Source: an uncultured Candidatus Saccharibacteria bacterium (GTDB taxonomy: Bacteria > Patescibacteriota > Dojkabacteria > SC72). From it: 64,000 nucleotides of DNA. The notes below the pieces were generated by a model. That model did no database searches, had not been told where the DNA came from, and saw only the letters and a program-made list of their open reading frames with translations. The DNA lies in NCBI GenBank assembly GCA_964514595.1, contig CAZEQZ010000001.1:331847-395846 (forward strand), written 5' to 3'. Position 1 is the first letter of the stretch; each line of letters opens with the position of its first letter. The translations under genes were made by a program, and so were the position numbers. Shown in pieces: positions 18,653 through 55,789 of this stretch.

Positions 18653-18749
18653 AATGAAAATAGTACCACTATTACATTATTATGGCAATAACGTTATTTT
18701 TCTTGTACAAGCATATAGATATTTATGCCTTTTCTTAGTATATTATTCT

Positions 18750-20135
18750 ATGCACTCATTAAAAGATAGAAAAGTTCTGATATTTGGTCTTGGTTTAAAT
18801 GATGGTGGATTGGGTATGGCAGAGTATTTCCTAAAGCATGGCGCATTAGTTACCATAACTGATTTAAGAACAAAAGAACAACTATCTCCAATATTAGGGA
18901 AGTTAGAAAAGTATAAGGAGCAAATAACGCTACACTTAGGAGAGCATAGAGAAGAAGATTTTCTAAATAATGATATTATTGTTAGAAATCCTGCTGTTAA
19001 ACCAAATAGTGAATATCTACAAATAGCCCAAAAAGCGGGGAAACAGATTGAAATGGAGATGAGTCTTTTTCACAGACTCTCACCCTGCCCTATCATAGGA
19101 ATAACTGGGACAAGGGGGAAGTCCACAACAACTTCTTTAATATATGAATTTCTGAAGAAAAAATACGGAGGAAAAATATTTTTGGGAGGAAACATAGGAA
19201 GAAGTGCTATAAGAGAGGTGGATACTCTAACCAAGGATAATATTGCTGTTTTGGAAATATCTAGCTTTCATCTAGATGGTATGGGAGCAAATAAAGTATC
19301 ACCACATATTGCTGTTGTTACAAATATGTACATAGATCATCAAGATTGGCACGGTAGTATGGAAGAGTATATAAATGCAAAGAAGAACATATATAGATAT
19401 CAAGGGAATGATGATTATTTGGTTGTAAATATCGACAATGATATTACGAAAGAATTTGTGAAGGATTGTAAGTCCAATATTATCACCTACTCACTTAAAG
19501 ATACCCCTGCAAACTACTATATGGATGATAATATGCAGATATATTTAAATGGTGTACCTATACTAAAGCTTCAGTCGAAAGATGTAGCTTTAAAAGGAGA
19601 ACATAACATGTATAACATACTTTCTGCCATAGCTACAGCGAAAATATATGACATTAGTAATGAAGATATAGAGGAAGTCTTAAAAGATTTCAAAGGTGTA
19701 CCTGGAAGGCAAGAGCTTGTTAGAGAGCTTAATGGTGTTAAATTCTATAACGATACTACAGCAACCTCTGTAGAGGCTGTTAAAGCTATGTTTGAGAGAT
19801 TTTCAAAAGATTTCAGTGGGAAGATTATTATGATAGCAGGTGGCGTGGATAAAGGACTTGATTATTCATTGCTTGTAGACAATATGAAAGAACATCTAAA
19901 AGGTTTGGTACTTCTTGAAGGTACAGCCTCTGAGAGGATAAATGACTTAATGGGTGATTTTGATAATACGCATAAGTATTTTAATAATATGGAAAGTGCA
20001 GTTAAGAAGGCATATGAGTTAGCAAAAGATGGAGACATGGTAATACTGTGTCCAAGTGCTTCAAGTTTTAATATGTTCTTGAATGAATTTGATAGAGGTG
20101 ATCAGTATGTAAAGTATGTTAATTTGTTAAAATAA
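18750..20135 (+). CDS. murD: UDP-N-acetylmuramoylalanine--D-glutamate ligase
   Basis: N-terminal KVLIFGLGLNDGGLGMA Rossmann-like domain. P-loop GITGTRGKSTTT. LEISSFHLD and DHQDWHG motifs. Start placed at the internal ATG at 18750 (MHSLKDRK) because the longer ORF overlaps the divergent giant gene. Confidence 0.8.
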   Translation: MHSLKDRKVLIFGLGLNDGGLGMAEYFLKHGALVTITDLRTKEQLSPILGKLEKYKEQITLHLGEHREEDFLNNDIIVRNPAVKPNSEYLQIAQKAGKQIEMEMSLFHRLSPCPIIGITGTRGKSTTTSLIYEFLKKKYGGKIFLGGNIGRSAIREVDTLTKDNIAVLEISSFHLDGMGANKVSPHIAVVTNMYIDHQDWHGSMEEYINAKKNIYRYQGNDDYLVVNIDNDITKEFVKDCKSNIITYSLKDTPANYYMDDNMQIYLNGVPILKLQSKDVALKGEHNMYNILSAIATAKIYDISNEDIEEVLKDFKGVPGRQELVRELNGVKFYNDTTATSVEAVKAMFERFSKDFSGKIIMIAGGVDKGLDYSLLVDNMKEHLKGLVLLEGTASERINDLMGDFDNTHKYFNNMESAVKKAYELAKDGDMVILCPSASSFNMFLNEFDRGDQYVKYVNLLK

Positions 20136-20139
20136 TTAT

Positions 20140-21480
20140 ATGATAGATATACAAGGATTGAAGAAGGTTCATTTTATAGGCATCACCTCCGCTTTTTGTA
20201 GCTTCTGTGCTAACTATCTCATAGAGAAAGGGGTTAAAGTCACTGCATCGGAAGTTAATCAACAATCAGAGGATGCAAAAAAATGGATAGAGAGAGGTGT
20301 CTTGTATGAGGGTGGTCATAGTGGAAAATATATAACAGATGATTTGGATTTAGTTGTTCTTCCCACAGGTCCTATTCCAGGTAATCCAGAGTGTGTAGTT
20401 GCAGAAAGAAAGAATATTCCAACTATTCCAGTAGCTAAATTAACGGGAATAATTAGTAAAGAGTTTAAGACAATTGCCATAGCAGGTACACATGGGAAAA
20501 CAACCACATGTGCTTTAACTGTATGGATGTTATATAAGGCGTTAGGCTCTCTCCCAAACTTTGTTATAGGAGATCACATATTAGATATAGATAGATCATG
20601 GAACTACAATCCCGAGAATGAGTATTTTGTAGTAGAGGCATGCGAATACAAGAAACAATTTCTAGATAGAGCCCCTACTCCATATATTTCTGTCATAACA
20701 AATATTGAATTAGATCATACAGACTTCTTTAAATCGCAAGAGCAGTATAATGATGCTTTTGTGGAGTTTGTATCAAATACCACAAAAGCTTTGGTAGTCG
20801 ATACAAAGGGGAATAATATAGAAAATATTTTAAGAAAGATTAAGGAATACAACATAGAGATAGTTGATGTTGCTAATCTAAAGGATGATTGTTCTAATGT
20901 CACAGCGGGTCTCAGAGGTGATTATAACAAACAGAACGTACTAAGGGCATGTGGTGTAGCAGAATACTTAAAGTTAAATGTTGATATAGAGGATTTCCCA
21001 GGAGTAGCTTCAAGATTTGAATTTAAGGGTTCTACCATTAATGGTATGTCAGTATATCTTGACTATGCACACAATCCCACAAAGGTGAAGGCATGCTTGA
21101 GAGCTACGAGAGAGAGCTTCCCAGATAAAAAAATAATATTTGTGTGGCAACCGCATAGTTTTGAAAGGACATACTCTTTCAAAGATCAATTTGCAAAGAG
21201 TCTTGACGATACAGATATTTTATATATCCCCAATATTTTCGCACCCAACCGAGAGGAGAGAAGATATAAAGAATTAATAACTGAGGAAGAATTTGTAGAT
21301 TATCTTAAAGAGAAGAACCCTTCTAAAGAAATACTTTATACAAAGGATTTCGAAAATACCGCATCGCTACTCTTGGATAAAAAGTATAACTCTGATTATA
21401 TCTGTGTATTAGCCAGTGCAGGAGATTTGTATAAAATACTTCCCAGCTTGAAATTAGAAGATAATAAAGATGAAATATAG
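20140..21480 (+). CDS. Mur ligase of MurC/Mpl type (UDP-MurNAc--L-alanine ligase or murein-peptide ligase)
   Basis: N-terminal VHFIGI... domain. P-loop AIAGTHGKTTTC. EACEYKKQFL (EADESD-like) and DYAHNP motifs characteristic of MurC/Mpl. Confidence 0.7.
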   Translation: MIDIQGLKKVHFIGITSAFCSFCANYLIEKGVKVTASEVNQQSEDAKKWIERGVLYEGGHSGKYITDDLDLVVLPTGPIPGNPECVVAERKNIPTIPVAKLTGIISKEFKTIAIAGTHGKTTTCALTVWMLYKALGSLPNFVIGDHILDIDRSWNYNPENEYFVVEACEYKKQFLDRAPTPYISVITNIELDHTDFFKSQEQYNDAFVEFVSNTTKALVVDTKGNNIENILRKIKEYNIEIVDVANLKDDCSNVTAGLRGDYNKQNVLRACGVAEYLKLNVDIEDFPGVASRFEFKGSTINGMSVYLDYAHNPTKVKACLRATRESFPDKKIIFVWQPHSFERTYSFKDQFAKSLDDTDILYIPNIFAPNREERRYKELITEEEFVDYLKEKNPSKEILYTKDFENTASLLLDKKYNSDYICVLASAGDLYKILPSLKLEDNKDEI

Positions 21481-23056
21481 CGAAATAAAAAAAGTAGTAG
21501 TTATTGGTATTGGAGGACGAGGTGCCTACTACATTGTTAAATTCCTTAATCTTCTAGATATAGTTGTAGAAGGATATGATCTAAAGGAATCAGAAAGAAC
21601 AAAGGAAATAGAGAGTTGGGGTGTAAAGATTAATTATAGGAATCCTCAACCAGGTGAGATATTTGATTGTGATTTTTTCATATATACGAATGACTTACTT
21701 AAAGAATTGCAAGAGCAAATAAAGGAGGACAATAGCGATAAGGAGGGTTTGGAATTAGGGAAATTCTACAAACAAATCATCAAAGATTTTGAGTCTGGGA
21801 ATATGAATGAGAGTGAGATAAAGGCTTTTAAAGATTCTAACATTGCTCCACTATTTGATATAGATACTTCAAAAATGAGGTATATAGCTATTACAGGTAC
21901 TGATGGGAAGACAACAACCTGTACTATGATCTACCATATGTTGAAAGATAATGGATTTAAACCTGCATTAATAACAACAGTTGCAGCATATATTGGAGAA
22001 GAAGAGATTGCGACTGGTTTGCATACAACGACTCCATCGTCCCAAGAACTATACGATCTTCTAAAACGAATAGAAACAGAGCAATGCACACATGTGATCA
22101 TAGAAGCCACATCTCATGGCTTAGAACAAGGGAGATTAGCAGGGTTAAAGTTTGATACTGTTGGATATACAAACATCACATCAGAGCATTTAGACTACCA
22201 CGGCAATTGGGATAGCTACTGCAATGCCAAAGCACTTCTAATAAAGGATCATCTTAAGGATGGTGGTTTAGTTGTATTAAATAAGGATGATAAATCCTTC
22301 GAAATACTCTCTAAACTTTCAAATAATGTTCTCACCTACTCTATTCTTCAAGTAGCAGATTTTGAAGGAAAAGATATAGAAGAGTTAAAGAATGGAATAA
22401 ATTTCGAGTTGAGAAATAAGGAAGAAACATTTCCTATAACTTTGCCAATTTTAGGGAAATATAATGTTTCTAATTTTCTTTGTTCTGTAGCAGTCTGCGA
22501 AAAAGAAAATATTACGATTGAGAAAATGAAAGATTCAATCATTTCTTTTAAAACAGTTAAAGGAAGAATGGAGATACTTAAAAAAGAACCGTATACCGTA
22601 ATTGTGGACTATGCTCATACCTCCAATGCTGTAGAGAATGCTCTTAAGTCTGCAAGGTTGATGGTGAAAGATGATGGAAAACTTATTCATGTTTTTGGTT
22701 GTGCAGGTAGAAGAGATTTCTATAAAAGACCTGAGATGGGAAGAATCTCAAATGAATTAAGTGATATTACAATATTAACGGCAGAGGATCCTAGATTAGA
22801 GAATTTAGAAGACATAAATGATCAGATAGAGAAAGGTTGGAGAGAGGGCAAGAATAAGAAAGGAAAGTTGTATAGATTTGACTATATGGATAAGAATGTA
22901 GAGGTTAGAAGAGATGCAATTAAAGAAGGTTTAGAATTAGCCAAGGGGAATGATGTTGTAATAATAACAGGAAAAGCTCATGAAGAATCTCTCTGCTTTG
23001 GGCAGATAGAGTATCCATGGAATGATATTGAGGAGAGTAAAAAACTAATAGCATAA
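21470..23056 (+). CDS. Mur ligase, MurE-like central and C-terminal domains with atypical MurC-like N-terminal domain
   Basis: P-loop ITGTDGKTTTC. GLHTTTP, EATSHGLEQGRL, EHLDYHG, DYAHT and TAEDPR motifs resemble MurE (TTP, SSHGL, DHLDYHG, DYAHTPDAL, DNPR). The N-terminus VVVIGIGGRGAYYIV resembles MurC/D. Its start overlaps the upstream gene by 11 nt. Confidence 0.6.
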   Translation: MKYSEIKKVVVIGIGGRGAYYIVKFLNLLDIVVEGYDLKESERTKEIESWGVKINYRNPQPGEIFDCDFFIYTNDLLKELQEQIKEDNSDKEGLELGKFYKQIIKDFESGNMNESEIKAFKDSNIAPLFDIDTSKMRYIAITGTDGKTTTCTMIYHMLKDNGFKPALITTVAAYIGEEEIATGLHTTTPSSQELYDLLKRIETEQCTHVIIEATSHGLEQGRLAGLKFDTVGYTNITSEHLDYHGNWDSYCNAKALLIKDHLKDGGLVVLNKDDKSFEILSKLSNNVLTYSILQVADFEGKDIEELKNGINFELRNKEETFPITLPILGKYNVSNFLCSVAVCEKENITIEKMKDSIISFKTVKGRMEILKKEPYTVIVDYAHTSNAVENALKSARLMVKDDGKLIHVFGCAGRRDFYKRPEMGRISNELSDITILTAEDPRLENLEDINDQIEKGWREGKNKKGKLYRFDYMDKNVEVRRDAIKEGLELAKGNDVVIITGKAHEESLCFGQIEYPWNDIEESKKLIA

Positions 23057-26574: not shown

Positions 26575-27099
26575 TTAAATCTTAGGCGGTGTAACACCAT
26601 CTTGATTAGAATATTTACTCTCCTTACCTCCTACTATCTTTTCACTTAGTTTAGCAAACAGATATGTACCAATCTTCTCACCCTTATGTAATACAATATT
26701 ACAATTTCCTAAATTCTTTATTTCTAATACGGAATTTTCATTATTGAAAGGTATTCCATCTAATACTAATGCTGTAATATGTATAGTCATCCCTACTCTA
26801 GCAAATGTAGATCTACCATCTACCATGGTTATAATGTCCTTGTCTGTCCTTACACTCTGAAGTGTAGAGCCTAAAACAAAATCATTAGGTTTTAAAATAT
26901 ATGGACCCTTAGATAGATCATGTTTGTCATATTTTAATTCTTTTGGCTTCTGAGTATCTACTGTTTGATTAGGTTTAGGTATAAGTAATTCAGGACCTAA
27001 ATTCATAGTTATTCCCTTAGTCTCAATATGTAGTTTTCCTTTTACAATAATCTTCCCCTTTTGTATGTATTTGCTAATTGTTTTATTCGAAAGAAACAT
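26575..27099 (-). CDS. dcd: dCTP deaminase / dUTPase-family protein
   Basis: GRSTFARVGMTIH motif (GRSSLARLG-like) followed by a dUTPase-like beta region. N-terminus ISKYIQKGKII typical of Dcd. 174 aa. Confidence 0.6.
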   Translation of the reverse strand: MFLSNKTISKYIQKGKIIVKGKLHIETKGITMNLGPELLIPKPNQTVDTQKPKELKYDKHDLSKGPYILKPNDFVLGSTLQSVRTDKDIITMVDGRSTFARVGMTIHITALVLDGIPFNNENSVLEIKNLGNCNIVLHKGEKIGTYLFAKLSEKIVGGKESKYSNQDGVTPPKI

Positions 27100-27201
27100 G
27101 GCAATATGTATACACTTAATACATATATATTACATCATATTATAACTAATTCATATATTATTAATTAAGTGATATACTAGAAAAATTTTTAACAAGAATA
27201 T

Positions 27202-30458: not shown

Positions 30459-31577
30459 TTATTTCTTGTATATTCTAGGGACTCTTTCACTGATACTAGT
30501 TAGCATATCCCAAATTGATCTTTCTGAGAGCGAAGATAATTTATAAAGAGAAATATTATCTCCCCACAACTCTACTGTATCGCCTACATATGCTTCTCCA
30601 GTCTTTCCCAGACTTACCATAACTTGATCCATACACACCCTTCCTGCTAGTGGATATATTTTATCATTAACATACACATATCCTTTATTTGACAATGTAG
30701 ATGGATATCCATCTGCATATCCTACGGGTAGGGTAATGATACGGGATCTGTTCTCCGTAGTATATGTTCTATCATATCCAACAGTATATCCTTTCTCTAA
30801 AACCTTAAAATATGATACTTTTGTAAAAAATTTCATAACAGGTTTTAGTAATCTTTGTATCTTAGGATTAAAACTGTATCCATACAGCATAAGGCCAGGT
30901 CTTGCCATATCAAAAAAGGAGTCTTTGTAATTGTTTGATACCGCACCACTATTTGCTAAGTGAATAATTGGAGGAAGTTTATAGTTCTTTTTAATATATT
31001 CCAATACCTTACTAAACCTCTCAGATTGTAAATATGTATATATTTTGTCATTAATAGAATCAGAAAAATGAGAGAATATTCCTACAATATTAATATTCTC
31101 TAAACTGTATGCTTTATCTATGAATTTTTCTTTCCTATCCCACTGTACCCCTATTCTACCCATACCAGTATCAATTTTAAGATGTATATTAGCACATTTT
31201 CCTAATTTCTTAGCCACTTTAGATATGTTCTCTATTTTTTCAATAGAAGATCCTGTCATATCGACATCATATTTAAGATACAATGGAACCTGTGAGTTAG
31301 TAATAGCACCTAATACAAGTATTGGCTTTTTAATACCATTCTCTCTTAAGTATATTGCTTCTTCCAAATATGCCGTGCCTAAGTAGTCTACATTTAATTT
31401 TTCTAATTCTTTGGATATTTCTACTAACCCATGTCCATATGCATTTGCTTTAACTACACCCATTAGTTTTGTATTTTTACCAATAATATTTCTAATCACC
31501 AAGACATTATTTTTAAGGTTATTTAAAGAAATCTCTACATAGGTCGGTCTGTTTTGGAATATAGGACTATTAAACAT
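30459..31577 (-). CDS. alr: Alanine racemase
   Basis: PLP-lysine motif VVKANAYGHG. Two-domain Alr architecture. 372 aa. Immediately downstream of ddl. Confidence 0.85.
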   Translation of the reverse strand: MFNSPIFQNRPTYVEISLNNLKNNVLVIRNIIGKNTKLMGVVKANAYGHGLVEISKELEKLNVDYLGTAYLEEAIYLRENGIKKPILVLGAITNSQVPLYLKYDVDMTGSSIEKIENISKVAKKLGKCANIHLKIDTGMGRIGVQWDRKEKFIDKAYSLENINIVGIFSHFSDSINDKIYTYLQSERFSKVLEYIKKNYKLPPIIHLANSGAVSNNYKDSFFDMARPGLMLYGYSFNPKIQRLLKPVMKFFTKVSYFKVLEKGYTVGYDRTYTTENRSRIITLPVGYADGYPSTLSNKGYVYVNDKIYPLAGRVCMDQVMVSLGKTGEAYVGDTVELWGDNISLYKLSSLSERSIWDMLTSISERVPRIYKK

Positions 31578-31578
31578 A

Positions 31579-32574
31579 CTAAGCGTTTTCTATGAAAAAT
31601 GTAATGAGTTTTGTAAAATTCATCCCAATGGCTTTAGCTTCTTGGGGAATTAACGAGGTAGCAGTCATACCAGGAAGGGTATTTGTTTCTAGAAAATATA
31701 TATCAGATCCTTTTATTAAGAAATCAGACCTACTGTATAGTCTACATCCAAGTAGTTTGTGAATTTCTATTGCTAATTTGGAAACTTGATCCCTTTGTTT
31801 TTTAGGAATACCAACAGCTGGTATTCTTTCAATAGAACCTCCTATATCGTATTTAGATTTATAATCAAAAAAAGTAGCTTTTTGGGGGATTATTTCTATT
31901 GGAGGAAGTGATATAAATGTACCATTTTTCTTTTCTAAACACCCACAACTCACTTCCACATAATCTTCTATAAGTTCCTGTACTAAAATCCCCCCACCAT
32001 TATCTTTATATTTGTCAAAATCCTTAAGAGAGTTTTTAACATCATTATTGTCTTTTAGCGGGTAGGCACACACACTAGAACCATCTCTATTTGGTTTTAC
32101 AAAAAGAGGTAGTTTACTGTTTCTGAGTATACTTTCTAAATCTTTTAATTTAATAAGTTTTGTTTTCACCTCAGGTAGCTTTAAATATTTATTAACCAAA
32201 GTACAAGATCTGTACTTATCCATACATAATCTACTTGAATATGAATCTGATCCTGTAAATTTGACATTGTTTTCTTCTAAGTATGTTTGTATAACACCAT
32301 CCTCACCAAATTGACCATGAGTTGCTAGGAGAACTAAATTATACTGTTTTAACTTTTTAATACCACTATCCAGTGAAATGGGTTTGTTTTTGATACTGTT
32401 AATAGATAGTGGTTCTAGAATCTTTGTAAAAGAAAATCTCTTTTTTTTGTCTACAATACATAGCGATACTAAATATCTTTTGTAATCGATATAGTTAAGT
32501 ATTGATTGAGCTGTGGAAATAGACACTTCATGTTCGCTGGAAGGACCACCACATAATATGAGGACCTTTTTCAT
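31579..32574 (-). CDS. ddl: D-alanine--D-alanine ligase
   Basis: N-terminus KVLILCGGPSSEHEVSISTAQS typical of Ddl. ATP-grasp C-terminal region. 331 aa. Confidence 0.85.
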   Translation of the reverse strand: MKKVLILCGGPSSEHEVSISTAQSILNYIDYKRYLVSLCIVDKKKRFSFTKILEPLSINSIKNKPISLDSGIKKLKQYNLVLLATHGQFGEDGVIQTYLEENNVKFTGSDSYSSRLCMDKYRSCTLVNKYLKLPEVKTKLIKLKDLESILRNSKLPLFVKPNRDGSSVCAYPLKDNNDVKNSLKDFDKYKDNGGGILVQELIEDYVEVSCGCLEKKNGTFISLPPIEIIPQKATFFDYKSKYDIGGSIERIPAVGIPKKQRDQVSKLAIEIHKLLGCRLYSRSDFLIKGSDIYFLETNTLPGMTATSLIPQEAKAIGMNFTKLITFFIENA

Positions 32575-43554: not shown

Positions 43555-43632
43555 TGGGGTGGATGATGGGCTTTGAACCCACAACCCTCGGTTCCACAAA
43601 CCGATGCTCTAACCAATTGAGCTACATCCACC
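43555..43632 (-). tRNA. tRNA-His (anticodon GUG) with genome-encoded G(-1) and encoded 3' CCA
   Basis: Manual fold: acceptor stem GUGGAUG/CAUCCAC, D-stem GCUC/GAGC, anticodon stem UCGGU/ACCGA, anticodon loop UUGUGGA (anticodon GUG), T-stem GUGGG/CCCAU. An extra 5' G pairs with the discriminator C. Confidence 0.85.
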
Positions 43633-44543: not shown

Positions 44544-46331
44544 CTATTTTACAGTAACAGATTTTGCTAGATTCCTAGGTTTATCTATACTATTACCTAA
44601 TTCTAAAGAAAGAAAATATGATATTAATTGAAAAGGTATTACGTTAGATATACTACTCAATGTATTTATTTGAGGTGTAGGTATGAAATCATCAAATATG
44701 TCTAATTTAGAGTATTCAGAGCTCCCTATGCCGATTGTATGAGCTCCCCTGGCCTTTACCTGCTCCATAGCACTAATTATATCCTTATTATCATCTGTAT
44801 GTTCATTAGAAGGTACTATACCTATTACAGGAGTACCCTTCTCTATCAATGCTATAACTCCATGCTTAAGTTCCCCTGCAGAAAAGCCCTCTACATGCTT
44901 ATACGATATTTCCTTAATCTTAAGTGCACCCTCAAGCGCTATAAAGGAGTTTTCTCCTTTTCCTAGAATAAAGAAGTGTTCATATTTTTTAATGTTCTTG
45001 CATATCTGTTGTATATATTTAAATGTAGAGGGCTTAAATATATCTTTAAGAGAGTTAGAAAGCTCCTTTAATTTTCTCTGTGCAGTTCTGTGCTTTCCTA
45101 TGAGTGACATAGCTACTAAATATCCCCATGCAGTTTGAGATGTGAAGACTTTGGTGGAAGCTACACATATTTCAGGTCCTGCGTTGGTGTAGTATTCATA
45201 ATCTGACATTCTAGATATTGTAGTACCGTACATATTAACAATACTCGCTATCTTGCACCCTCTTTTCTTAAATACTTCCAAAGGCTCAATAGTATCTGCT
45301 GTCTCTCCACTTTGTGAAATTGCTAATATTAGATCTTTAGTAGAGAGAATTGGTAGGTAGCTTCTAAATTCGTAACTTTTTATCTCCTGTGCATCTATTC
45401 CTGCAATTGTTCTTAAAAAGTATGCTATCTGTCCTGCAGCATACCCAGCTGTACCTGCACCTAATATATATACCTTCCTAGATTTTTTAATAGCATCTAA
45501 TATTGGTTGGAGCTCCTTAAGAGTATACTGTGTAGCAAATAGAATTGTTTTCTGTTGCTCTACAATCTCTTTTAACATATAGTGGGCATATTTACCCTTA
45601 GATATATCCTCATACTGATACTTTAGTTCCTTTATTTGAGGTGATACTTTCTTGCCTGTTTTAATATTCGTGATATTAAATTTCTTCCCCTCAATCTCCA
45701 CCATTTCATAATCATCAAGTACGACGATCTTTTTAGTATACGGGGAGAAGGAAAGTGAATCAGATGCCAGATATGTTCCATCTTTTCCTATTCCCACAAC
45801 CAAGGGAGAGCCATTTTTAATTGCATATATTTTCCCTGATTGAGAATCTATTAATGCAACTGTATTTCTTCCTTCTAAGGTTTTGAATACATTTATAAAT
45901 GATTGTTTAAGGGTATTTCCTTTCTTAATCTCTCTTTCTATTAATTTAACAATAACTTCAGTATCTGTTTGAGATTTAAATACATATTTCTCCCTCTTTA
46001 ATTCTTTTTTAAGTTGATCAAAATTCTCCACGATACCATTCTGTACCAAAGTGAAGTCCTTGGATGTGGAGATATGGGGATGGGCGTTTGTTTTTGTAAC
46101 GCCACCGTGTGTAGCCCATCTGGTATGTCCTATTCCAATATTACTCTTAGGAAGCTTTGTTAAATTGGTATCCTTTTTAACAAGCCCTATGTTTTTGTAT
46201 TGATATATCTTCTTTCCATTCAATACTGCAACTCCCCAAGAATCATATCCTCTGTATTCCAATCTCTTGAGTCCTTCAAATACTAAATTGTTTGCAACAT
46301 TAGATCCAGTGTAGCCAAAAATACCGCACAT
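44544..46331 (-). CDS. glmS: Glutamine--fructose-6-phosphate aminotransferase (GlcN6P synthase)
   Basis: N-terminal MCGIFGY (Ntn Cys). Glutaminase domain. Two SIS domains. 595 aa. Confidence 0.9.
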   Translation of the reverse strand: MCGIFGYTGSNVANNLVFEGLKRLEYRGYDSWGVAVLNGKKIYQYKNIGLVKKDTNLTKLPKSNIGIGHTRWATHGGVTKTNAHPHISTSKDFTLVQNGIVENFDQLKKELKREKYVFKSQTDTEVIVKLIEREIKKGNTLKQSFINVFKTLEGRNTVALIDSQSGKIYAIKNGSPLVVGIGKDGTYLASDSLSFSPYTKKIVVLDDYEMVEIEGKKFNITNIKTGKKVSPQIKELKYQYEDISKGKYAHYMLKEIVEQQKTILFATQYTLKELQPILDAIKKSRKVYILGAGTAGYAAGQIAYFLRTIAGIDAQEIKSYEFRSYLPILSTKDLILAISQSGETADTIEPLEVFKKRGCKIASIVNMYGTTISRMSDYEYYTNAGPEICVASTKVFTSQTAWGYLVAMSLIGKHRTAQRKLKELSNSLKDIFKPSTFKYIQQICKNIKKYEHFFILGKGENSFIALEGALKIKEISYKHVEGFSAGELKHGVIALIEKGTPVIGIVPSNEHTDDNKDIISAMEQVKARGAHTIGIGSSEYSKLDIFDDFIPTPQINTLSSISNVIPFQLISYFLSLELGNSIDKPRNLAKSVTVK

Positions 46332-46349
46332 AGTAGTAGTTGTTAATTT

Positions 46350-46490
46350 TATATTCTTAGGGATTGGTGGTTAGAGTTTGTTTATTTGTAACTAACCTTT
46401 AGGCTAACAATATAGCCTAGGAGTGCCCGCTGATGGCTCGATAGCTCCTGCCTCGTAACAATATCCTTGGTATTGCCCAGCCGCTTCTAT
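46350..46490 (-). ncRNA. Candidate glmS ribozyme in the glmS 5' leader
   Basis: Minus-strand leader GUUACGAGGCAGGAGCUAUCGAGCCAUCAGCGGGCACUCCU matches the conserved glmS ribozyme core (GUUGACGAGGAUGGAGGUUAUCGA...CGGCGG...CCUCC in Bacillus). A P1-like hairpin CAAUA/UAUUG lies upstream, the P3-like hairpin UAGGCUA/UAGCCUA and then UAAAGG follow, and there is a terminal hairpin GGUUAG/CUAACC. The region is locally GC-rich in an AT-rich genome. Confidence 0.5.
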
Positions 46491-46554
46491 GTTAAATAAC
46501 CCTTCGTATATATTACAGGATAGATTTTTGAGGTCAAGTGATATATATTAGAAT

Positions 46555-47936: not shown

Positions 47937-48451
47937 ACTGTTTTGATTTTCACTAATTGATTTGCAATCAAACCACCAGTTAATACAGTAACTAATTGAA
48001 TTATTCCCATAGAGCTTAGAAATATACTTGGTAATTCTATTAATCTATTTAGAATTAAAGTCATTGTGAAAAGAAAGATAGCCTTTATGGCAGATGCAAG
48101 AATTACACTTATATAATCCTTCTTAATGTGTTTATATATTAAAACATAAAGGATGTTTGCGATACCAATAACTGGAATTAAATATAGGAGAAAATGAGTA
48201 GTAGTGCCAAACAGTAGACCGTATGTATAGGAGGCTATGGAAGGAAAGAATAGTGCAGGAGCTATTTGTTTAAAACTGAATTGGGTTATACCTAAAATCA
48301 AAAGAAAATTAATTAAAGAACCAAGTAGTAGTTGTGGACCTGGGAGGATGAGAGGAGTTATGAAAAGAAGAATGTAGAAGAGTGAAAGGTGTAAATATTT
48401 GTTGAGTAATATGAGATCCAATTTTTGATATATTCTGTATATATATTGCAT
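47933..48451 (-). CDS. Polytopic membrane protein (possible ECF-transporter S-component/BioY-like)
   Basis: 172 aa with about 5-6 TM segments. TPLILPGPQLLLGSLINFLLILG weakly resembles the BioY-type S component. Confidence 0.3.
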   Translation of the reverse strand: MQYIYRIYQKLDLILLNKYLHLSLFYILLFITPLILPGPQLLLGSLINFLLILGITQFSFKQIAPALFFPSIASYTYGLLFGTTTHFLLYLIPVIGIANILYVLIYKHIKKDYISVILASAIKAIFLFTMTLILNRLIELPSIFLSSMGIIQLVTVLTGGLIANQLVKIKTV

Positions 48452-48537
48452 ACTAAATATTACAAATATTATTTAATTAAAACAAGTTAATGAGTTATAG
48501 GTCTGTTAAACTTCTTTATTAAAATGTATATTAAATT

Positions 48538-49389
48538 ATGGAATTTGATAGAAGTAAGAAATATATCTGTTTGCTTGCACCCTCCTTTGTTTCCGAGTTC
48601 GATTATCCAGATATAGTATATCGACTAAGAGCCCTAGGATTTGACAAGGTTGTAGAGTTAACATTTGGAGCTAAGATGACCAACCTAACCTACTATACTG
48701 TATTAAAGGATAGTATAGACAAGGGGGAAAAGAAGACATGGATAGCATCGCCCTGCCCTACGCTTGTTAACTTCATAAAGGTTAAGTATCCCCATCTGGT
48801 TGAAAATTTGGTTCCTGTACACTCTCCTATGGGAAGTATGAGTTTGATTTGCAAAAAGTTTTATCCTTCTCATACCCAAGTATTTATCGGACCCTGCGTT
48901 ACAAAAAAACTGGAGGCCCAAGAAACAGGAAGTGTCGAGCACGTCCTCACATTTAAAGAGTTGGAGGAGGCATTAAAAGAAAAAAATATACCGGAAAGAA
49001 TAGACGATCCAAAATATTGTGAAAGTTTTGATAAATTCTACAACGATTACACGAAGGTATATCCAATATCTGGAGGCCTATCTAACACCTTAAATTATAA
49101 ACATATCCTTAATGATCATGATATTTTGGTGAAAGAGGGTTTAAATGATTTGGTAAAAATATTTGATAAATTTAAAGATGGAAGATACAAGCATTATAAA
49201 TTCTTAGATATTCTTAATTGCAAGGGGGGATGTATCAATGGGCCTGGAATGATAGGAAATAGGTCTATCAAAGAGAGGACAAAGAGGGTATTGAAATACC
49301 GTGAGTTTGCTTGGAAGTACGAGAAGGATTTAGGTAAAGCTGGTAGTTTAGTTGATGCAAAGGGTGTTGATTTTAAGAGAAAATTCTAA
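48538..49389 (+). CDS. [FeFe]-hydrogenase H-domain-like protein (minimal, with altered L1 motif)
   Basis: APSFVSEF, LRALGFDKVVELTFGAK, L1-like IASPCPTLV (versus TSCCP), SPMGS, L2-like FIGPCVTKKLEAQE (versus MPCxxKxxE) and L3-like LDILNCKGGCINGPG (versus ExMACxxGCxxGGGQP). All four cluster-ligating Cys positions are retained, but the first Cys of TSCCP is Pro. 283 aa. No N-terminal ferredoxin-like domains. Confidence 0.5.
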   Translation: MEFDRSKKYICLLAPSFVSEFDYPDIVYRLRALGFDKVVELTFGAKMTNLTYYTVLKDSIDKGEKKTWIASPCPTLVNFIKVKYPHLVENLVPVHSPMGSMSLICKKFYPSHTQVFIGPCVTKKLEAQETGSVEHVLTFKELEEALKEKNIPERIDDPKYCESFDKFYNDYTKVYPISGGLSNTLNYKHILNDHDILVKEGLNDLVKIFDKFKDGRYKHYKFLDILNCKGGCINGPGMIGNRSIKERTKRVLKYREFAWKYEKDLGKAGSLVDAKGVDFKRKF

Positions 49390-49449: not shown

Positions 49450-51120
49450 ATGTCAAAATACATATTTATCTCGGGAGGCGTAATTTCCGGAATAGGAAAA
49501 GGTGTATCAGCAGCCTCTATAGGTTTCATCTTAAAGTCATACGGTAAGAAAATTACCATGATCAAAGCCGATCCGTATATTAATATTGATGCAGGAACTA
49601 TGAATCCTTTAGAGCATGGAGAGACTTTTGTACTAGAAGATGGGTTTGAAACTGATATGGATATTGGAACGTATGAAAGGTTCACCAATCAATCTTTCTC
49701 TAGGCCTAACTCTATGACGCTTGGTGCTGCTTTGGACAGAGTTATAAAGAAGGAAAGATCATTAGAATATAATGGGAAGTGGGTTAGTCTAGATCATCAT
49801 GTTCCAGAAGCTATAGTGGAGTGGCTAGAGGAGGTAACTAAAAAAGAGAAATCGGATATAACAATAGTAGAAATTGGTGGTACTGTAGGAGAAGTAGGAA
49901 ACAGCTTAATGCTATCGGCAAATAAAGCCCTAAAACTTAGAAATCCCAATGATGTTATACATATTCATGTGACATATCTTCCAGTTCCTCCTCGGTTAGG
50001 TGAAATGAAAACTAAGCCTGCACAGCTTTCAATTCAGCAATTAAATAGGCATGCTATACATCCGGATTTTATAATTGCAAGATCGGAGGTGGGACTAGAT
50101 AAGGAAAGGATTGAGAAAATTAGTAAATACTGTTTTGTACCACCCAATCATGTTATATCAGCTCCAGATGTTGACTGTATATATGATATCCCACTTAATT
50201 TCGAAAGTGCTGACATTGGAAAGGAGATTTTAAAATCATTAAATTTAAGAGCCAAGACTACTCCGCTTTATTCTAAATGGAGAAAGAAAGTTTCTAAAAT
50301 CAAAAATCCCAAAAAGAATCTGGATATCGCCATAGTGGGGAAATATTATAAGAGTGGTGATTTTGATCTTAAGGACTCATATGTTTCTGTTTTGGAAGCA
50401 ATTAATCATGCTTGTTGGGAATTTTCTATTAAACCTAATATTCACTGGATAGTAGCGGATGGATTAGAAAAAGATAAAAAAAGATTAGCAGAATTATCTA
50501 AGATGGATGGTATTATTGTTCCTCAAGGTTGGGGATGTAGAGGATGTGAAGGCAAAATACGAGCAGTGCAGTTAGCTAGAGAAAAGAAAATTCCATATTT
50601 CGGACTATGTTACGGCATGCAGATGGCCACAATAGAATATGCAAGGAATGTATTAGGTATCAAAGATGCTAATTCAGAAGAGGTTGATCCTAAATGTAAG
50701 GACAAAGTAATACATTTAATGGAAGAGCAACAGGAACTAATTAAAAAGAAGGAGTATGGAGGTACTATAAGATTGGGTGCTTGGCCATGCAAGATAGATG
50801 AAAAATCTCTTATATATGAAATGTATGATAAATATGGTAATGGTCTTTACAGGCCGCTTCCAGTAGTTCAGGAAAGACATAGACATAGATATGAATTTAA
50901 TAATGAATATAGAGAGATATTTGAAAAGTCTGATTTCAAATTAGTGGGTAAAAGTCCTGATGATATGTTAATTGAAGCCATAGAACTATCCAAAACTGTG
51001 CATCCATTCTTTATAGGCACGCAGTATCATCCAGAACTTAAAAGTAGATTCTTAGAACCACATCCATTATTTATGGGGTTTGTAAATGCTAGTTTAAAAA
51101 GAAAGGCCTTTATTTCTTAA
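49450..51120 (+). CDS. pyrG: CTP synthase
   Basis: N-terminus MSKYIFISGGVISGIGKG. Synthetase domain. C-terminal class I glutamine amidotransferase with GLCYGMQ. Start placed at the internal Met. Promoter TTGACA-17-TAGATT at 49391-49419. Confidence 0.9.
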   Translation: MSKYIFISGGVISGIGKGVSAASIGFILKSYGKKITMIKADPYINIDAGTMNPLEHGETFVLEDGFETDMDIGTYERFTNQSFSRPNSMTLGAALDRVIKKERSLEYNGKWVSLDHHVPEAIVEWLEEVTKKEKSDITIVEIGGTVGEVGNSLMLSANKALKLRNPNDVIHIHVTYLPVPPRLGEMKTKPAQLSIQQLNRHAIHPDFIIARSEVGLDKERIEKISKYCFVPPNHVISAPDVDCIYDIPLNFESADIGKEILKSLNLRAKTTPLYSKWRKKVSKIKNPKKNLDIAIVGKYYKSGDFDLKDSYVSVLEAINHACWEFSIKPNIHWIVADGLEKDKKRLAELSKMDGIIVPQGWGCRGCEGKIRAVQLAREKKIPYFGLCYGMQMATIEYARNVLGIKDANSEEVDPKCKDKVIHLMEEQQELIKKKEYGGTIRLGAWPCKIDEKSLIYEMYDKYGNGLYRPLPVVQERHRHRYEFNNEYREIFEKSDFKLVGKSPDDMLIEAIELSKTVHPFFIGTQYHPELKSRFLEPHPLFMGFVNASLKRKAFIS

Positions 51121-53218
51121 CATATAGTTTTGTATCCACAACCACGGCCCTGTTCTCTGTTATCATAACAGGGTTAATATCCATTGTTATTATTTCGGGA
51201 TAGGAAACAAGTAATTTCTGTATACTCATTATCAGTTCAATAAGTTTCTCCCTTGCCAGCTTAGGTTTTCCTCTATACCCATCAATTATCATAGATGCTT
51301 TTGTCTTAGAAAGTATAGCGTCTATCTTTTCTAAACGTTCGGGTACTAGAATATGTCTAATATCCTTATAAACCTCTGTATATATTCCTCCTTGTCCAAT
51401 TGCTATTAAATGACCAAATCCAAGTCCACTTTTTTCATAAATATCAGATCCTCCCTCTCTGTTAGCACCAATAAAGAACTCTAATTTACCATCTATCATT
51501 TCTTGTATCAAAATATTGGGAGCTACATTGCCCGTTGTTTTAGTTATACTTTCTTTCAACTCAACAAACTTCTCTTCAAATTCTGTTATTGTTCTTATAT
51601 CCAAGAACAAACCCTTGAAATCAGTTTTATGTGCTAAATCTCTAGATTCTGCCTTAATTGCTACGGGGAATATTGTCGATGCAAAATCAATACCCTGTTC
51701 TAAACTACTAGCAACCATCTGTTGTGGCATATCTATACCAAATTCACTCAACAATTTTATTGAAAGTTTATCAGGAAGTATTTCAATTTTATCTCTAAAA
51801 ACATACTCCGATACCTCTTCTCTACTTTTCACCTTTTTTTGATATTCATCACTGTCTACAATCTTTGTTAATTCTTTGTTTTCTTCAAATTCTGCTAATT
51901 TGGAAATTAAATGCAGTGCTTCTTGGAGGTCATTAAACCATGGACAATTATTTTCTTCTAAAATGCGTATTCCTGATTTAATATCTTTCCCTCCTAGAAA
52001 ACAGGAATAAATTGGTTTAGAAGCCTTTTGAGATATATTAGCTATAGCTTGCGCCGTTCCTTCTATTTCTGTAATTAATTGGGGAGTTAGAATAACTAAT
52101 ATTACATCAATAGACACATCGTCTAGAAGTGTTTGTATGGCGAGCTCATATCTGTCACTCTTAGCATCTCCTAGTATATCAACAGGATTTGAGATGCTTG
52201 ATTCTGGAGGAAGATTCTTTAATAGTTTCTGTTCTGTTTTTTCGCCTATTTGTGCAAGTTTTAGACTTTCTTTCTCTATATGATCTACAGCAATTATTCC
52301 AGGTCCGCCTGCATTAGATACTATTCCAATATTTTTCCCTTTAGGTAGTTTATTTATATCTATTAACTGCATTAGTTTGAATAACTCTTCTGAATTTTCA
52401 GTGAAGATCATATTCCCCTTTTTCACTGCCGCAATAGTTGTATCAAAAGAAGATGCCAAGGATCCTGTATGAGAAGAGATCGCTTCTTTTGCTTTCTCTG
52501 AGATGCCCGGGGCTATTATTAATATTGGTTTTTTAGCTTTCTGACATAGTGTTACGAATTCTTTTCCATCTGAGAATTCTTCCAGATAGAGTGCTATTGC
52601 AGATATGGTATTGTCATTAACATATAGCTCCATTAACTCATTTTCATTTATATCAGCCTTATTTCCTATGGAAACGACCTGGGAGAATCCCAATTTCTTA
52701 TCAGATGCCATATCCAATATAGCAGTACAGAAGGCCCCTGATTGAGAAATAAAAGCGATTTTTCCATCTCCAGGATTTTCTCTCGCGAAAGACAGGTTTA
52801 TCTTAGCCTTATTATTTATGAATCCCAGACAATTAGGTCCTAGCAATCTTATATTCGCACTCTTAAGTTTGTTTGTTATTCTCTCTTCCAATTCCCTACC
52901 CTGTTCCCCTACCTCTTTAAATCCTGCAGAGATAACTACAACACTTTTAACCTGTTTTGTAACACATTGATCTATAATGTCCTCTACAAATTGATACGGT
53001 ATGGCAATACATACTGTCTCCACGTTTTCCTCTATCTTCAAAATATCTGGGTACGCTTTTCTTCCCTGTAGTTCTTCATATTTGGGATTTACTGGGTAAA
53101 TTTTCCCATTATATCCACCCTCTATTAAGTTCCTTAACAAGACAGACCCTATCTTATCAGGATCTTGAGAAGCGCCTACTATAGCTATTGATTTTGGAGA
53201 AAGAATTGATGCTTCCAT
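51110..53218 (-). CDS. Acetyl-CoA synthetase (ADP-forming), fused alpha-beta subunits (NDP-forming acyl-CoA synthetase)
   Basis: N-terminal CoA-binding domain (IAIVGASQDPDKIGSVLLRNL). Succinyl-CoA-synthetase-like ligase domain. C-terminal ATP-grasp. 702 aa. Confidence 0.7.
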   Translation of the reverse strand: MEASILSPKSIAIVGASQDPDKIGSVLLRNLIEGGYNGKIYPVNPKYEELQGRKAYPDILKIEENVETVCIAIPYQFVEDIIDQCVTKQVKSVVVISAGFKEVGEQGRELEERITNKLKSANIRLLGPNCLGFINNKAKINLSFARENPGDGKIAFISQSGAFCTAILDMASDKKLGFSQVVSIGNKADINENELMELYVNDNTISAIALYLEEFSDGKEFVTLCQKAKKPILIIAPGISEKAKEAISSHTGSLASSFDTTIAAVKKGNMIFTENSEELFKLMQLIDINKLPKGKNIGIVSNAGGPGIIAVDHIEKESLKLAQIGEKTEQKLLKNLPPESSISNPVDILGDAKSDRYELAIQTLLDDVSIDVILVILTPQLITEIEGTAQAIANISQKASKPIYSCFLGGKDIKSGIRILEENNCPWFNDLQEALHLISKLAEFEENKELTKIVDSDEYQKKVKSREEVSEYVFRDKIEILPDKLSIKLLSEFGIDMPQQMVASSLEQGIDFASTIFPVAIKAESRDLAHKTDFKGLFLDIRTITEFEEKFVELKESITKTTGNVAPNILIQEMIDGKLEFFIGANREGGSDIYEKSGLGFGHLIAIGQGGIYTEVYKDIRHILVPERLEKIDAILSKTKASMIIDGYRGKPKLAREKLIELIMSIQKLLVSYPEIITMDINPVMITENRAVVVDTKLYVKK

Positions 53219-53219
53219 A

Positions 53220-54086
53220 TTATTTTATATGTTCTAATAGTTTTTTAATATCATACTGTTTTACCTCGTCTACCAACTCTGTTAAGGAATCTTTCCTACT
53301 ATCAAGGGATTCATAGAAGGTCTTCATGTCATTATCCTTAAACAAAATTCCTGTGTATACAGGTGTCTGATCTTTCACTAAATCTAATGCACTGTCTAAA
53401 GATTGGTTATTATAGCTCTCTACGGTTTCAATCTTTTTTATATTTTGAGCAGCCCACTGAGGAGTAAAGTCTTTGTTGTATGTGGGACATAATTGCATTA
53501 TTTCTATAACAGAACATCCTTTGTGATTAACGGCTTCTTTTATTATTTCAGTCAATTGTAGTGGATCGCCGGAATATGCTTTTGCAAAAAATGCAGGTTG
53601 GAGAGAAAGTATAAATTGAGTTATATTAATATCCCTTTCTGGCCTTCCTGAAGGCAATCCATACATTGGTTTTTCCCTCTTGGTTGCAAGGGTAGCTTGT
53701 CCTGTTGTGAGTGCAAAATTCTCGTTGTTATGTATTAGTATGGTAATGTCGTAATTGGACCTGATGGCGTGTATTAGGTGATCTATTCCTTCGTGGAAAC
53801 ATCCTCCATCACCAATATCAGCTAGTACTGTAAATTTTCTGTTTGCTAGATGTGCTCCCACAGCGAGAGGTATGGATCTACCGTGTAAGCCTTTGAATCC
53901 ATACAGATTTATTCTATCTACGCCATTTCCATTACAACCTATATCAAATGCCATAAAAACCTCTGAAGGGGAAATGTTAAGTTCAGAGAGGGCTTTCTTG
54001 AGGGCAACTTGAACAGCAAAATTGCCGCATCCTGGACACCAAGTGGGTATATTAATTGAATTGTACTGTTCTATTGGTATACTCAT
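53220..54086 (-). CDS. 2-oxoacid:ferredoxin oxidoreductase, beta (TPP-binding) subunit
   Basis: CPGCGNFAV Cys cluster. GDGG TPP motif (ADIGDGGCFHEG). 288 aa. Confidence 0.7.
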   Translation of the reverse strand: MSIPIEQYNSINIPTWCPGCGNFAVQVALKKALSELNISPSEVFMAFDIGCNGNGVDRINLYGFKGLHGRSIPLAVGAHLANRKFTVLADIGDGGCFHEGIDHLIHAIRSNYDITILIHNNENFALTTGQATLATKREKPMYGLPSGRPERDINITQFILSLQPAFFAKAYSGDPLQLTEIIKEAVNHKGCSVIEIMQLCPTYNKDFTPQWAAQNIKKIETVESYNNQSLDSALDLVKDQTPVYTGILFKDNDMKTFYESLDSRKDSLTELVDEVKQYDIKKLLEHIK

Positions 54087-55789
54087 TGGCTATTTAAAAA
54101 ATCTAATATATCTTCCAAAAAGAATGGTCTTCCATCATATTTAAGTACTTTTTCTTTAAATAGAAAGCCTGTTTCTTGGGAGAGTAGTTTACCCAATTGT
54201 CCCGTTTGATTATTTTCTGCCAATATTAATCGCTTTCCTTGTTTTATAAGATCAGATAGTAGTGCAGTTTTCAATGGATATATGTATTCGTAGTGAAGGT
54301 ATGTTATATCATCTCTTGTACTAATTAGATCTGTCATAACATTTTTTACACTTCCCCATCCCACAAATACTATTTCACTATTTTTACTCCCGTAGAGGGT
54401 GGGTTCAGGGATTTCATTCATCAAAGTTTCCTGTTTCCTTGCTCTTTTATCTGCCATTTGTATGACTTCTTGGGAATCATCTGTGCTTGTACCATCTTCA
54501 GTATGCTCATCACTATTTGAGATATATGGCTTCTTATCTTTAGATGGAATCCATCTAGGAGAAATACCGGAATCTGTAATTTCGTATCTTAAGTCTCCCG
54601 TACTCAGTCCTCTTTCTATTGGTATGTTCTTGGGGAGGGAAGGAAGTGAGAATATAGATTCGGAAATTTGTTTTTCTGTTAAAAGAATAACTGGAAGTTG
54701 ATATTGTTCAGCTATGTTAAATGCCTTCTGTATTAATGTGTATGAGGAGTTTGCATCACTTGCTGATAGTACACATCTGGGAAATTCCCCGTGAGATGGA
54801 GTGACTGCAAGTTGTAGATCGCTGGCTCCAGTCCATGTGGGAACCCCTGTACCAGATCCTGCTCTTTGAGATAGGACTACTACTAATGGGGTCTCCGTCA
54901 TGCCTGCACAGGATATGGTTTCAGTCATTAAATCGAAACCTCCTCCTGATGTGGCAACTAAAGCTCGTGTTCCCATGTGCATGCTTCCCATGGCCATATG
55001 TATCGCAGTAATTTCATTCTCTGCTTGCTTTACTAAAATTCCCGTGTCATTTGCAGTATTGCCAAGGAATTTAAATATGGATGTGGCTGGTGTCATTGGA
55101 TATCCATAGTATGCTCTCACTCCACAAGATATTGCTCCCAAAGATAGGGCATCATTTCCAGAGATATTGATAGATCTTTGCTTAAGAAGTTCTAATTTAG
55201 GAATATTTATTCTTTCACTCAATTCCGGTCTATATGATGGAGATGTGTGGCCTGCTAGTATGACTTTCTTTTCTGCCTCTAAATCTATATTCTTTGATTT
55301 GAAATGTTCTAATATAATTTCTATTAATATCTCTACATCTAGATTTAATATTCTCCATAGGAAACCTAATATAGCAGCGTTGGACATTATTTCAGTTCCA
55401 CCAGCCTTTATTGCAAGTTCAACTGAATCTAAATATATAACAGATATGTTGTTACGCTTGATATGCTCTTCTTGTTCTTGAGAAAAATTTAAATCCTTAG
55501 ATCCATGGATTAAAATACCGTTTTGGGATACTGTATTAAGATAGTGTATTATAGATTCTGTGGAAGAGGTTAGAAGGATATTGCAATTCCTAGACGAGGA
55601 GTTGATAAGTTTGTTAGAAAAATCTATCTGATAGCTTGCCACTCCACCTTTTATTAACGATGGATACTCTCTATAGGAGAATGTTTTATAGCCGTGTTGA
55701 TTTAATGCCTTGGACAGTAGCTTGCCTACAGTATTTATTCCTTGACCAGATTCTCCTGCAAATTTTACGGACAGTCGTGTAAGGGACAT
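54083..55789 (-). CDS. 2-oxoacid:ferredoxin oxidoreductase, alpha subunit with fused N-terminal gamma domain
   Basis: N-terminal gamma-like domain (FAGESGQGINTVGKLL). Alpha-subunit motif YGYPMTPATS. 568 aa. No delta/ferredoxin subunit is adjacent, so this is a two-subunit OFOR/Kor type. Confidence 0.7.
   Translation of the reverse strand: MSLTRLSVKFAGESGQGINTVGKLLSKALNQHGYKTFSYREYPSLIKGGVASYQIDFSNKLINSSSRNCNILLTSSTESIIHYLNTVSQNGILIHGSKDLNFSQEQEEHIKRNNISVIYLDSVELAIKAGGTEIMSNAAILGFLWRILNLDVEILIEIILEHFKSKNIDLEAEKKVILAGHTSPSYRPELSERINIPKLELLKQRSINISGNDALSLGAISCGVRAYYGYPMTPATSIFKFLGNTANDTGILVKQAENEITAIHMAMGSMHMGTRALVATSGGGFDLMTETISCAGMTETPLVVVLSQRAGSGTGVPTWTGASDLQLAVTPSHGEFPRCVLSASDANSSYTLIQKAFNIAEQYQLPVILLTEKQISESIFSLPSLPKNIPIERGLSTGDLRYEITDSGISPRWIPSKDKKPYISNSDEHTEDGTSTDDSQEVIQMADKRARKQETLMNEIPEPTLYGSKNSEIVFVGWGSVKNVMTDLISTRDDITYLHYEYIYPLKTALLSDLIKQGKRLILAENNQTGQLGKLLSQETGFLFKEKVLKYDGRPFFLEDILDFLNSQ

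Follow-up and report, generated by a model that had tools for sequence, protein, structure and literature searches.

The question raised by this locus is whether the structured leader of a glmS gene in a CPR genome is a working member of the glmS ribozyme class, a class common in Gram-positive/Terrabacteria groups, or whether it only resembles one. The gene and its leader lie on the minus strand of the window, by which is meant the whole stretch of 64,000 nucleotides that was analysed. A first-pass annotation had seen parallels to the ribozyme core in the leader and had pointed to the Rfam covariance model RF00234 (glmS ribozyme) as the means to check them. That model matches positions 46496–46359 of the minus strand with 50.8 bits, the gathering score being 37, and an E-value of 7.9e-9, and it does so over model positions 1–167, in other words as the complete, untruncated model. 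When the whole window is scanned with Rfam 15 at gathering thresholds two matches are returned, this one and a tRNA. The 3' end of the RF00234 match stands 28 nt from the start of glmS on the same strand, and the downstream reading frame, already taken for glmS in the annotation, is GlmS by both of the protein families that match it (Table 1).

Given the RF00234 score and the presence of GlmS downstream, the original observation of a glmS ribozyme core was real, far above chance, and placed right to within a few bases. The motifs quoted for it all occur on the minus strand (ACGAGGCAGGAGCUAUCGAG at 46456–46437, CAGCGGGCACUCCU at 46432–46419 and TGTAATAT at 46517–46510), and the interval of 46345–46492 given for the element was roughly correct, if slightly off from that of the family match. 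The leader had also been described as locally GC-rich, and rightly so since G+C is 0.44 in the matched stretch and about 0.33 in the window. Its length had been put at about 200 nt; counted from 46503/46502, the probable start, as far as the ATG (46331) it comes instead to about 172 nt, with the RNA element including its leader running from around 46503.

Chance resemblance, that is a false-positive Rfam match arising in an AT-rich intergenic region, might be entertained because the nested MFE of the leader is no better than that of shuffles (z = −0.78, not significant) and because 50.8 bits falls in the lower range of the family. The MFE z-score is however uninformative for a pseudoknotted RNA, and the E-value obtained with a full-length model, the right position and strand before glmS, and conservation with covariation in 16 independent relatives together make a chance match vanishingly improbable. 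Judged on its sequence, the glmS leader is a genuine member of the known GlcN6P-sensing, self-cleaving glmS ribozyme class in a trimmed-down form. The class itself is a well-known one, and an ordinary Rfam scan is enough to pick up this instance of it; what is less ordinary is the CPR/Dojkabacteria host and the compact architecture of the RNA.

Table 1. Features of the glmS locus in the order of the transcript. Positions are those of the window; within the RNA, G1 is 46484 and nucleotide n lies at 46485 − n.
Feature	Positions	Strand	Remarks
−35-like hexamer TTGACC	46532..46537	minus	16-nt spacer to TAATAT; cTTGACC conserved at this spacing in most loci (n = 17)
−10 region TGTAATAT, hexamer TAATAT at 46515–46510	46510..46517	minus	(cc)TGTAAYAT conserved in most relatives
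AGGG, probable mRNA 5' end and candidate 'P0' 5' strand	46500..46503	minus	GGG in 16/17; pairs with CCCU in the nested MFE
Predicted scissile bond A(−1) 46485 / G1 46484	46484..46485	minus	aligned to AaA↓GCGCC of RF00234; A(−1), G1, C2, G3 invariant (n = 17)
P2.2 5' strand (C2 G3 [G4 bulge] C5 U6 G7)	46478..46483	minus	pairs 2–57, 3–56, 5–55, 6–54, 7–53; 95.3% paired
P1 hairpin, nt 8–28	46457..46477	minus	7 pairs, 4 compensatory; 95.5% paired
ACGAGG core, A29–G34	46451..46456	minus	invariant 17/17; C30 G31 A32 = P2.1 5' strand; roles from PMC7125110
P2 5' strand, A36–G40	46445..46449	minus	5 pairs (36–40 with 62–66), 4 compensatory; 100% paired
P2.1 3' strand, U44 C45 G46	46439..46441	minus	UCG invariant
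P2.2 3' strand, C53 A54 G55 C56 G57	46428..46432	minus	inside invariant UCAGCGG
P2 3' strand, C62–U66	46419..46423	minus	pairing in the 17-sequence alignment
P3 hairpin, nt 67–84 (67–72 with 79–84)	46401..46418	minus	6 pairs, 3 compensatory
P3.1 5' strand, A74 U75 U76 G77, in the P3 loop	46408..46411	minus	pairs with 119–122
P4 hairpin, 6 bp (88–93 with 111–116), 17-nt loop UUACAAAUAAACAAACU	46369..46397	minus	5/6 compensatory; 97% paired
P3.1 pseudoknot 3' strand, C119 A120 A121 U122	46363..46366	minus	4 pairs, 3 compensatory; 94% paired
CCCU, candidate closing-helix 3' strand, abutting P3.1	46359..46362	minus	CCC in 17/17; MFE pairing
glmS coding sequence	44544..46331	minus	595 aa, begins MCGIFGY; TIGR01135 591 bits, NF001484 621 bits

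Among species-representative genomes the nearest relatives of this GlmS are found in MAGs labelled Candidatus Dojkabacteria (WS6), at 66–78% identity and with a few labelled Saccharibacteria, and on GlmS similarity the organism is assigned to Candidatus Dojkabacteria (WS6, CPR/Patescibacteria). A protein 100% identical to GlmS also turned up on public contigs from JGI, NCBI, ENA and Logan, the longest reaching 760 kb. For the comparisons below the window locus was joined to 16 other Dojkabacteria/WS6 glmS loci, the GlmS proteins of which are 57–86% identical, to give a set of 17 sequences. RF00234 scores above gathering (45–64 bits) directly upstream of glmS in every one of these 16 loci, and with the window locus included the ribozyme stands upstream of glmS on the coding strand in 17/17. 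A tRNA-His (GTG) lies downstream of glmS at 43555–43631 (minus strand), and three of the relatives (L001, L003 and L004) have a near-identical tRNA match about as far beyond glmS.

Further afield, a more distant CPR MAG labelled Saccharibacteria (L006) has an RF00234 match of 72.8 bits, and Rfam scans of the glmS loci of a Peregrinibacteria MAG (L008) and of two non-CPR MAGs gave no RF00234 match. A metagenome scan by GlmS alignment picked out universal GlmS motifs and returned only relatives of 36–43% identity, and one of the 20 distant glmS loci so obtained and scanned with Rfam (L015) carries RF00234, at 52.6 bits. The L015 match (1171–1403, plus strand; GlmS 43% identical) is 233 nt long, about 100 nt of which are inserted within the core region, and its P4.1 is closed by ACAA and not by a GNRA loop. 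Among the papers searched none links the glmS ribozyme to CPR bacteria, be it under the name Patescibacteria, Saccharibacteria or Dojkabacteria.

The case for a maintained fold is made by the alignment. The full pseudoknotted structure was written on the 17 sequences as 37 pairs, with those of P2.1 and P2.2 and the base triples defined by the numbering in PMC7125110, PMC11602151 and PMC10810187. Over the whole alignment standard pairs form in 96.6% of pair cells, compared with 22–49% when the partners are slid, and changes on both sides are seen in 19 of the 37 pairs where shuffles give 8.9 ± 1.6, a count of 19 being reached by none of 500 shuffles. Compensatory pairs are spread over P1, P2, P3 and P4, each of these helices being 95–100% paired (Table 1), and P3.1 covaries visibly, for example as CUG/CAG in L099, ACAC/GUGU in L104, AUUAC/GUAAU in L102 and AUGUAU/AUACAU in L103. 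The core behaves differently in that A(−1), G1, C2, G3, ACGAGG, UCG and UCAGCGG are invariant in 17/17, and because their pairs do not vary P2.1 and most of P2.2 provide pairing potential and no covariation. The P2.1 pairs C30–G46, G31–C45 and A32–U44 are formed in all 17 sequences and never change, G31 aligning with the active-site guanine (roles per PMC7125110), and the core has an additional A47–U52 pair. A mismatch in the uCGA/UCGg hairpin reported by cmscan was considered as counter-evidence and set aside: the Rfam consensus carries this hairpin as its pre-crystal 'P2a', and since the hairpin lies outside the structure-derived pairing its mismatch is no evidence against the fold.

Much of this anatomy had been anticipated. 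The CAAUA/UAUUG hairpin is P1 (46475–46471 with 46463–46459), UAGGCUA/UAGCCUA is P3 with its outermost U (46419) belonging to P2, UAAAGG is J3/4 and the beginning of P4, and GGUUAG/CUAACC is P4 (46397–46392 with 46374–46369), and so P1, P3 and P4 had been assigned as they are here. What the first-pass annotation missed was the loss of P4.1, the P3.1 pseudoknot and a host that is CPR as opposed to Firmicute. It had also treated an inability of P2.1 and P2.2 to form as grounds for giving up the ribozyme, and both can form, with 100% of P2.1 cells and 95.3% of P2.2 cells paired (n = 17).

Overall the Dojkabacteria RNAs are a compact lineage subtype without P4.1, with the P2.2 bulge shifted, with the G before ACGAGG replaced and with a possible helix between the 5' end and the 3' tail, and about 125 nt separate the cleavage site from the end of P3.1. 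P4.1 and its tetraloop are absent in 17/17, around 17–18 model positions being deleted in every Dojkabacteria match and the P4 loop measuring about 16–17 nt. Without P4.1 there is no tetraloop docking on P1 and so the receptor contact is impossible in Dojkabacteria; consistent with the missing contact, the P1 receptor pair C10–G26 has become U–A in 5/17 and thus seems free to covary. The P4 loop keeps the A-rich motifs (A)CAAA and ACAAA, aligned to uauAAAa and gACAaAG of the RF00234 model, and in Bacillus it is the P4 internal-loop adenines that pack on the core, against P2.1 (PMC11602151). Substitutions in the L4 tetraloop and the P1 receptor are not tolerated in B. subtilis (PMC11602151). 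The P4.1/peripheral domain is accessory in that ligand-induced cleavage is obtained without it (PMC1635283), and since the domain is dispensable for ligand-induced activity the trimmed periphery is compatible with function.

The second departure concerns the register of P2.2. The canonical register, which bulges nt 6, was tried and rejected, as only 64.7% of its cells are paired and the 5–54 pair is formed in 0/17. In the register with the shifted bulge the pairs are C2–G57, G3–C56, C5–G55, U6–A54 and G7–C53. The 5' strand reads GCG(G/A/U)(C/A)UG across the lineage, and the invariant 3' strand UCAGCGG has A54 for the consensus G (G53 in the core numbering of PMC7125110). Where the bulge sits depends on the type, at nt 4 in the GC and AC types and at nt 5 in the UA type with a U4·G wobble, and for GC and AC the shift is reproduced by duplex folding. 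In an earlier collection the nt-6 bulge was at least 97% conserved, and in the T. tengcongensis core single changes at the 5–53 pair cost around 1000-fold (PMC7125110). Double-mutant rescue showed bulge-shifted P2.2 arrangements to keep activity in vitro (Andreasson et al. 2020, PMC7125110). The third departure is that the position before ACGAGG is U in 14/17 and A in 3/17, in a segment 1 nt shorter than the consensus, and the consensus G found there forms a base triple with G7–C52 in core numbering (PMC7125110).

Such losses could be read as those of a decayed or repurposed relic, in which the fold has been kept and efficient cleavage lost, the RNA now serving as a structured leader, with a part in the stability or folding of the mRNA for instance, or as a non-cleaving ligand sensor. 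P4.1, the tetraloop–receptor contact and the G before ACGAGG have gone, the P2.2 register is non-canonical, and the corresponding positions are mutation-sensitive in the B. subtilis and T. tengcongensis ribozymes. A relic would be expected to drift, however, and what is seen over 17 lineages is strong purifying selection, with compensatory upkeep of the helices and a catalytic core that is invariant including A(−1)/G1. Taken with the dispensability of the peripheral domain and the in vitro activity of P2.2 variants with a shifted bulge, this makes an inactive relic unlikely. Since several nucleotides near the active site depart from the consensus in the Dojkabacteria core, an altered cofactor dependence might also be proposed, with cleavage either responding to another amine-containing metabolite or being cofactor-independent and metal-dependent. 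The strict association with glmS, upstream of it at every locus, is the expected logic of a GlcN6P feedback and renders this very unlikely. That the glmS 5' leader in this Candidatus Dojkabacteria (CPR/Patescibacteria) genome acts as a functional glmS ribozyme-riboswitch is, on the evidence described, highly probable.

Where the RNA begins bears on its architecture. A scan for promoter hexamers by itself performs at chance level, with 3 sites found and 2.1 expected, and the promoter call rests on conservation in relatives and not on that scan. For TGTAATAT the window has 17 occurrences where 7.8 ± 2.9 are expected. The motif had been read at first pass as an extended −10: the element is indeed there with its TG kept in relatives, but the TG directly adjoins TAATAT and so this is no textbook extended −10. 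A 512-aa sigma-70 family protein is encoded at 12328–13866 (minus strand) and matches RpoD weakly (72.8 bits against a cut-off of 354) and in its C-terminal part only; a divergent primary sigma factor could be related to the unusual TGTAATAT-type −10.

Transcription would start some 7–8 nt past the conserved TTGACC-N16-TGTAATAT, at or beside AGGG (46503–46500), and it is this distance from the −10 box that makes AGGG the probable mRNA 5' end. The GGG so placed may pair with the CCC that follows P3.1. In six sequences with 1–2 spacer nt between P3.1 and CCC, 8/8 spacer nt are complementary to the nucleotides after GGG, for which a permutation with shuffled leaders gives 5e-5, a value uncorrected for phylogeny. 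A GGG/CCC closing helix as a lineage-specific addition is reasonable but unproven. A further and more tentative reading, possible though we lean away from it, is that the Dojkabacteria RNAs form an undescribed minimal natural subclass in which the P4.1/tetraloop–receptor clamp has been replaced by a GGG/CCC helix stacking on P3.1 and the P2.2 bulge has migrated. Were this so, the triphosphorylated 5' end would belong to the fold and cleavage would also release the GGG/CCC clamp, the migration of the P2.2 bulge would mirror in nature the 'bulge-shift' rescues made in the laboratory, and the known range of the class would be extended in a way that would fit a placement of CPR near the Gram-positive/Terrabacteria groups.

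No terminator or expression-platform hairpin was found in the glmS leader, which fits control by cleavage and not by termination. Between the RF00234 match and the gene (46332–46358, minus strand), and in the same region of L001–L005, L011 and L095–L104, there is an AAAAUUA-like motif about 20 nt before the glmS ATG and then a tract of C, A and U without G (CUACUACUAUG, ACACUAUUAUG and the like). Motif and tract may serve to signal translation initiation in an organism that does without SD sequences. A Shine-Dalgarno-like motif precedes 5 of 50 ORFs in the window, and many ORFs have TAATAT/TATAAT-like boxes 6–30 nt before the ATG (for instance at 48451–48464, 27099–27134 and 2828–2850). The scarcity of SD motifs and the −10-like boxes so near to the ATG suggest leaderless or very short-leader mRNAs.

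For the glmS leader as a functional ribozyme-riboswitch we infer, by homology and from the conserved elements above, a course of events from the start site through ligand binding and cleavage to decay. The transcript would fold into a double-pseudoknotted core (P1, P2, P2.1 and P2.2) with a reduced periphery consisting of P3, P3.1 and a P4 hairpin without P4.1. As GlcN6P accumulates it would bind as a cofactor in the P2.1/P2.2 pocket, a role assigned by homology, and self-cleavage would take place between A46485 and G46484. Cleavage would free about 19 nt of leader and leave the glmS mRNA with a 5'-OH end, and the 5'-OH product would then be degraded, most probably by RNase J, so that GlmS synthesis is lowered. 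The predicted outcome is a negative feedback acting at the first step of the route to UDP-GlcNAc and peptidoglycan. In B. subtilis the 5'-OH product is degraded by RNase J1, according to the passage of PMC5473149 that cites Collins et al. 2007, and rnj is reported to be retained in at least 90% of CPR genomes (PMC12641178). Among the scanned ORFs of the 64-kb window RNase J is absent.

Elsewhere in the window, at 18642–23056 (plus strand) and 30459–32574 (minus strand), are genes for MurD, a second Mur ligase, MurE, alanine racemase and D-Ala-D-Ala ligase, which indicate that the cell makes peptidoglycan and so needs GlcN6P. Its energy metabolism is represented by an [FeFe]-hydrogenase-like protein of 283 aa (48538–49389, plus strand), an ADP-forming acetate-CoA ligase (acetyl-CoA synthetase; 51110–53218, minus strand) and the alpha subunit of a 2-oxoacid:acceptor (ferredoxin) oxidoreductase (53220–55789, minus strand). 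The host is thus a fermentative, peptidoglycan-making CPR bacterium. Fibronectin type III and CarboxypepD_reg-like domains are found in the product of a 1446-aa ORF (14312–18652, minus strand), probably a large surface protein, and this ORF sits in a G+C-richer stretch (0.41 at 16–18 kb against about 0.33).

If the RNA works as predicted, a streamlined, uncultivated CPR lineage would control the synthesis of its cell-wall precursors by metabolite-triggered RNA self-cleavage. The loss of P4.1 together with the shifted P2.2 bulge offers a compact, evolution-tested scaffold on which to ask which peripheral contacts matter, and the Dojkabacteria ribozymes are a natural test of rearrangements inferred from high-throughput mutagenesis. 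There is a practical gain too in better annotation of Dojkabacteria genomes and in a candidate promoter and start-site motif for a largely SD-less organism.

Set beside known systems, the Dojkabacteria RNAs share with the RF00234 ribozymes of Bacillus subtilis, B. cereus, B. anthracis and Thermoanaerobacter tengcongensis their place in the glmS 5' UTR and the A↓GCG cleavage context. With characterised members of the family they also have in common the ACGAGG, UCG and GCGG core strands, the double pseudoknot of P1, P2, P2.1 and P2.2, a P3 with the P3.1 pseudoknot, a P4 with A-rich motifs, and the negative-feedback logic to be expected of them. In contrast to those ribozymes they do without P4.1, the L4 tetraloop and the tetraloop–P1 receptor contact. 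They bulge nt 4 or 5 in place of nt 6, U6 being paired in all of them with the A found at the consensus-G position, and have U or A for the G before ACGAGG in a segment shortened by 1 nt. Their P1 is short (3–8 bp), the leader before the cleavage site is about 19 nt long, a candidate GGG/CCC helix lies beside P3.1, and the CPR host has almost no Shine-Dalgarno motifs.

The nearest parallel to the P2.2 arrangement is found in the bulge-shifted laboratory variants of T. tengcongensis (PMC7125110), where rescue of activity came with nt 6 pairing to nt 53 in core numbering and nt 4 or 5 being bulged. Those variants are however engineered double mutants of reduced activity, whereas the Dojkabacteria arrangement is fixed across the lineage and known from sequence. 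Of the two more distant natural relatives, both in the same family, L006 also does without the G before ACGAGG, having a U, and L015 also has an A at the consensus G of UCGGCGG. In contrast to the Dojkabacteria RNAs both keep P4.1, and in both the P2.2 register can be the canonical one, with a G5·U wobble in L006 and a U5–A pair in L015, the register of the latter being formally ambiguous as U5 and U6 are adjacent. The consistency of L006 and L015 with the canonical register supports the P2.2 pairing scheme drawn here for Dojkabacteria.
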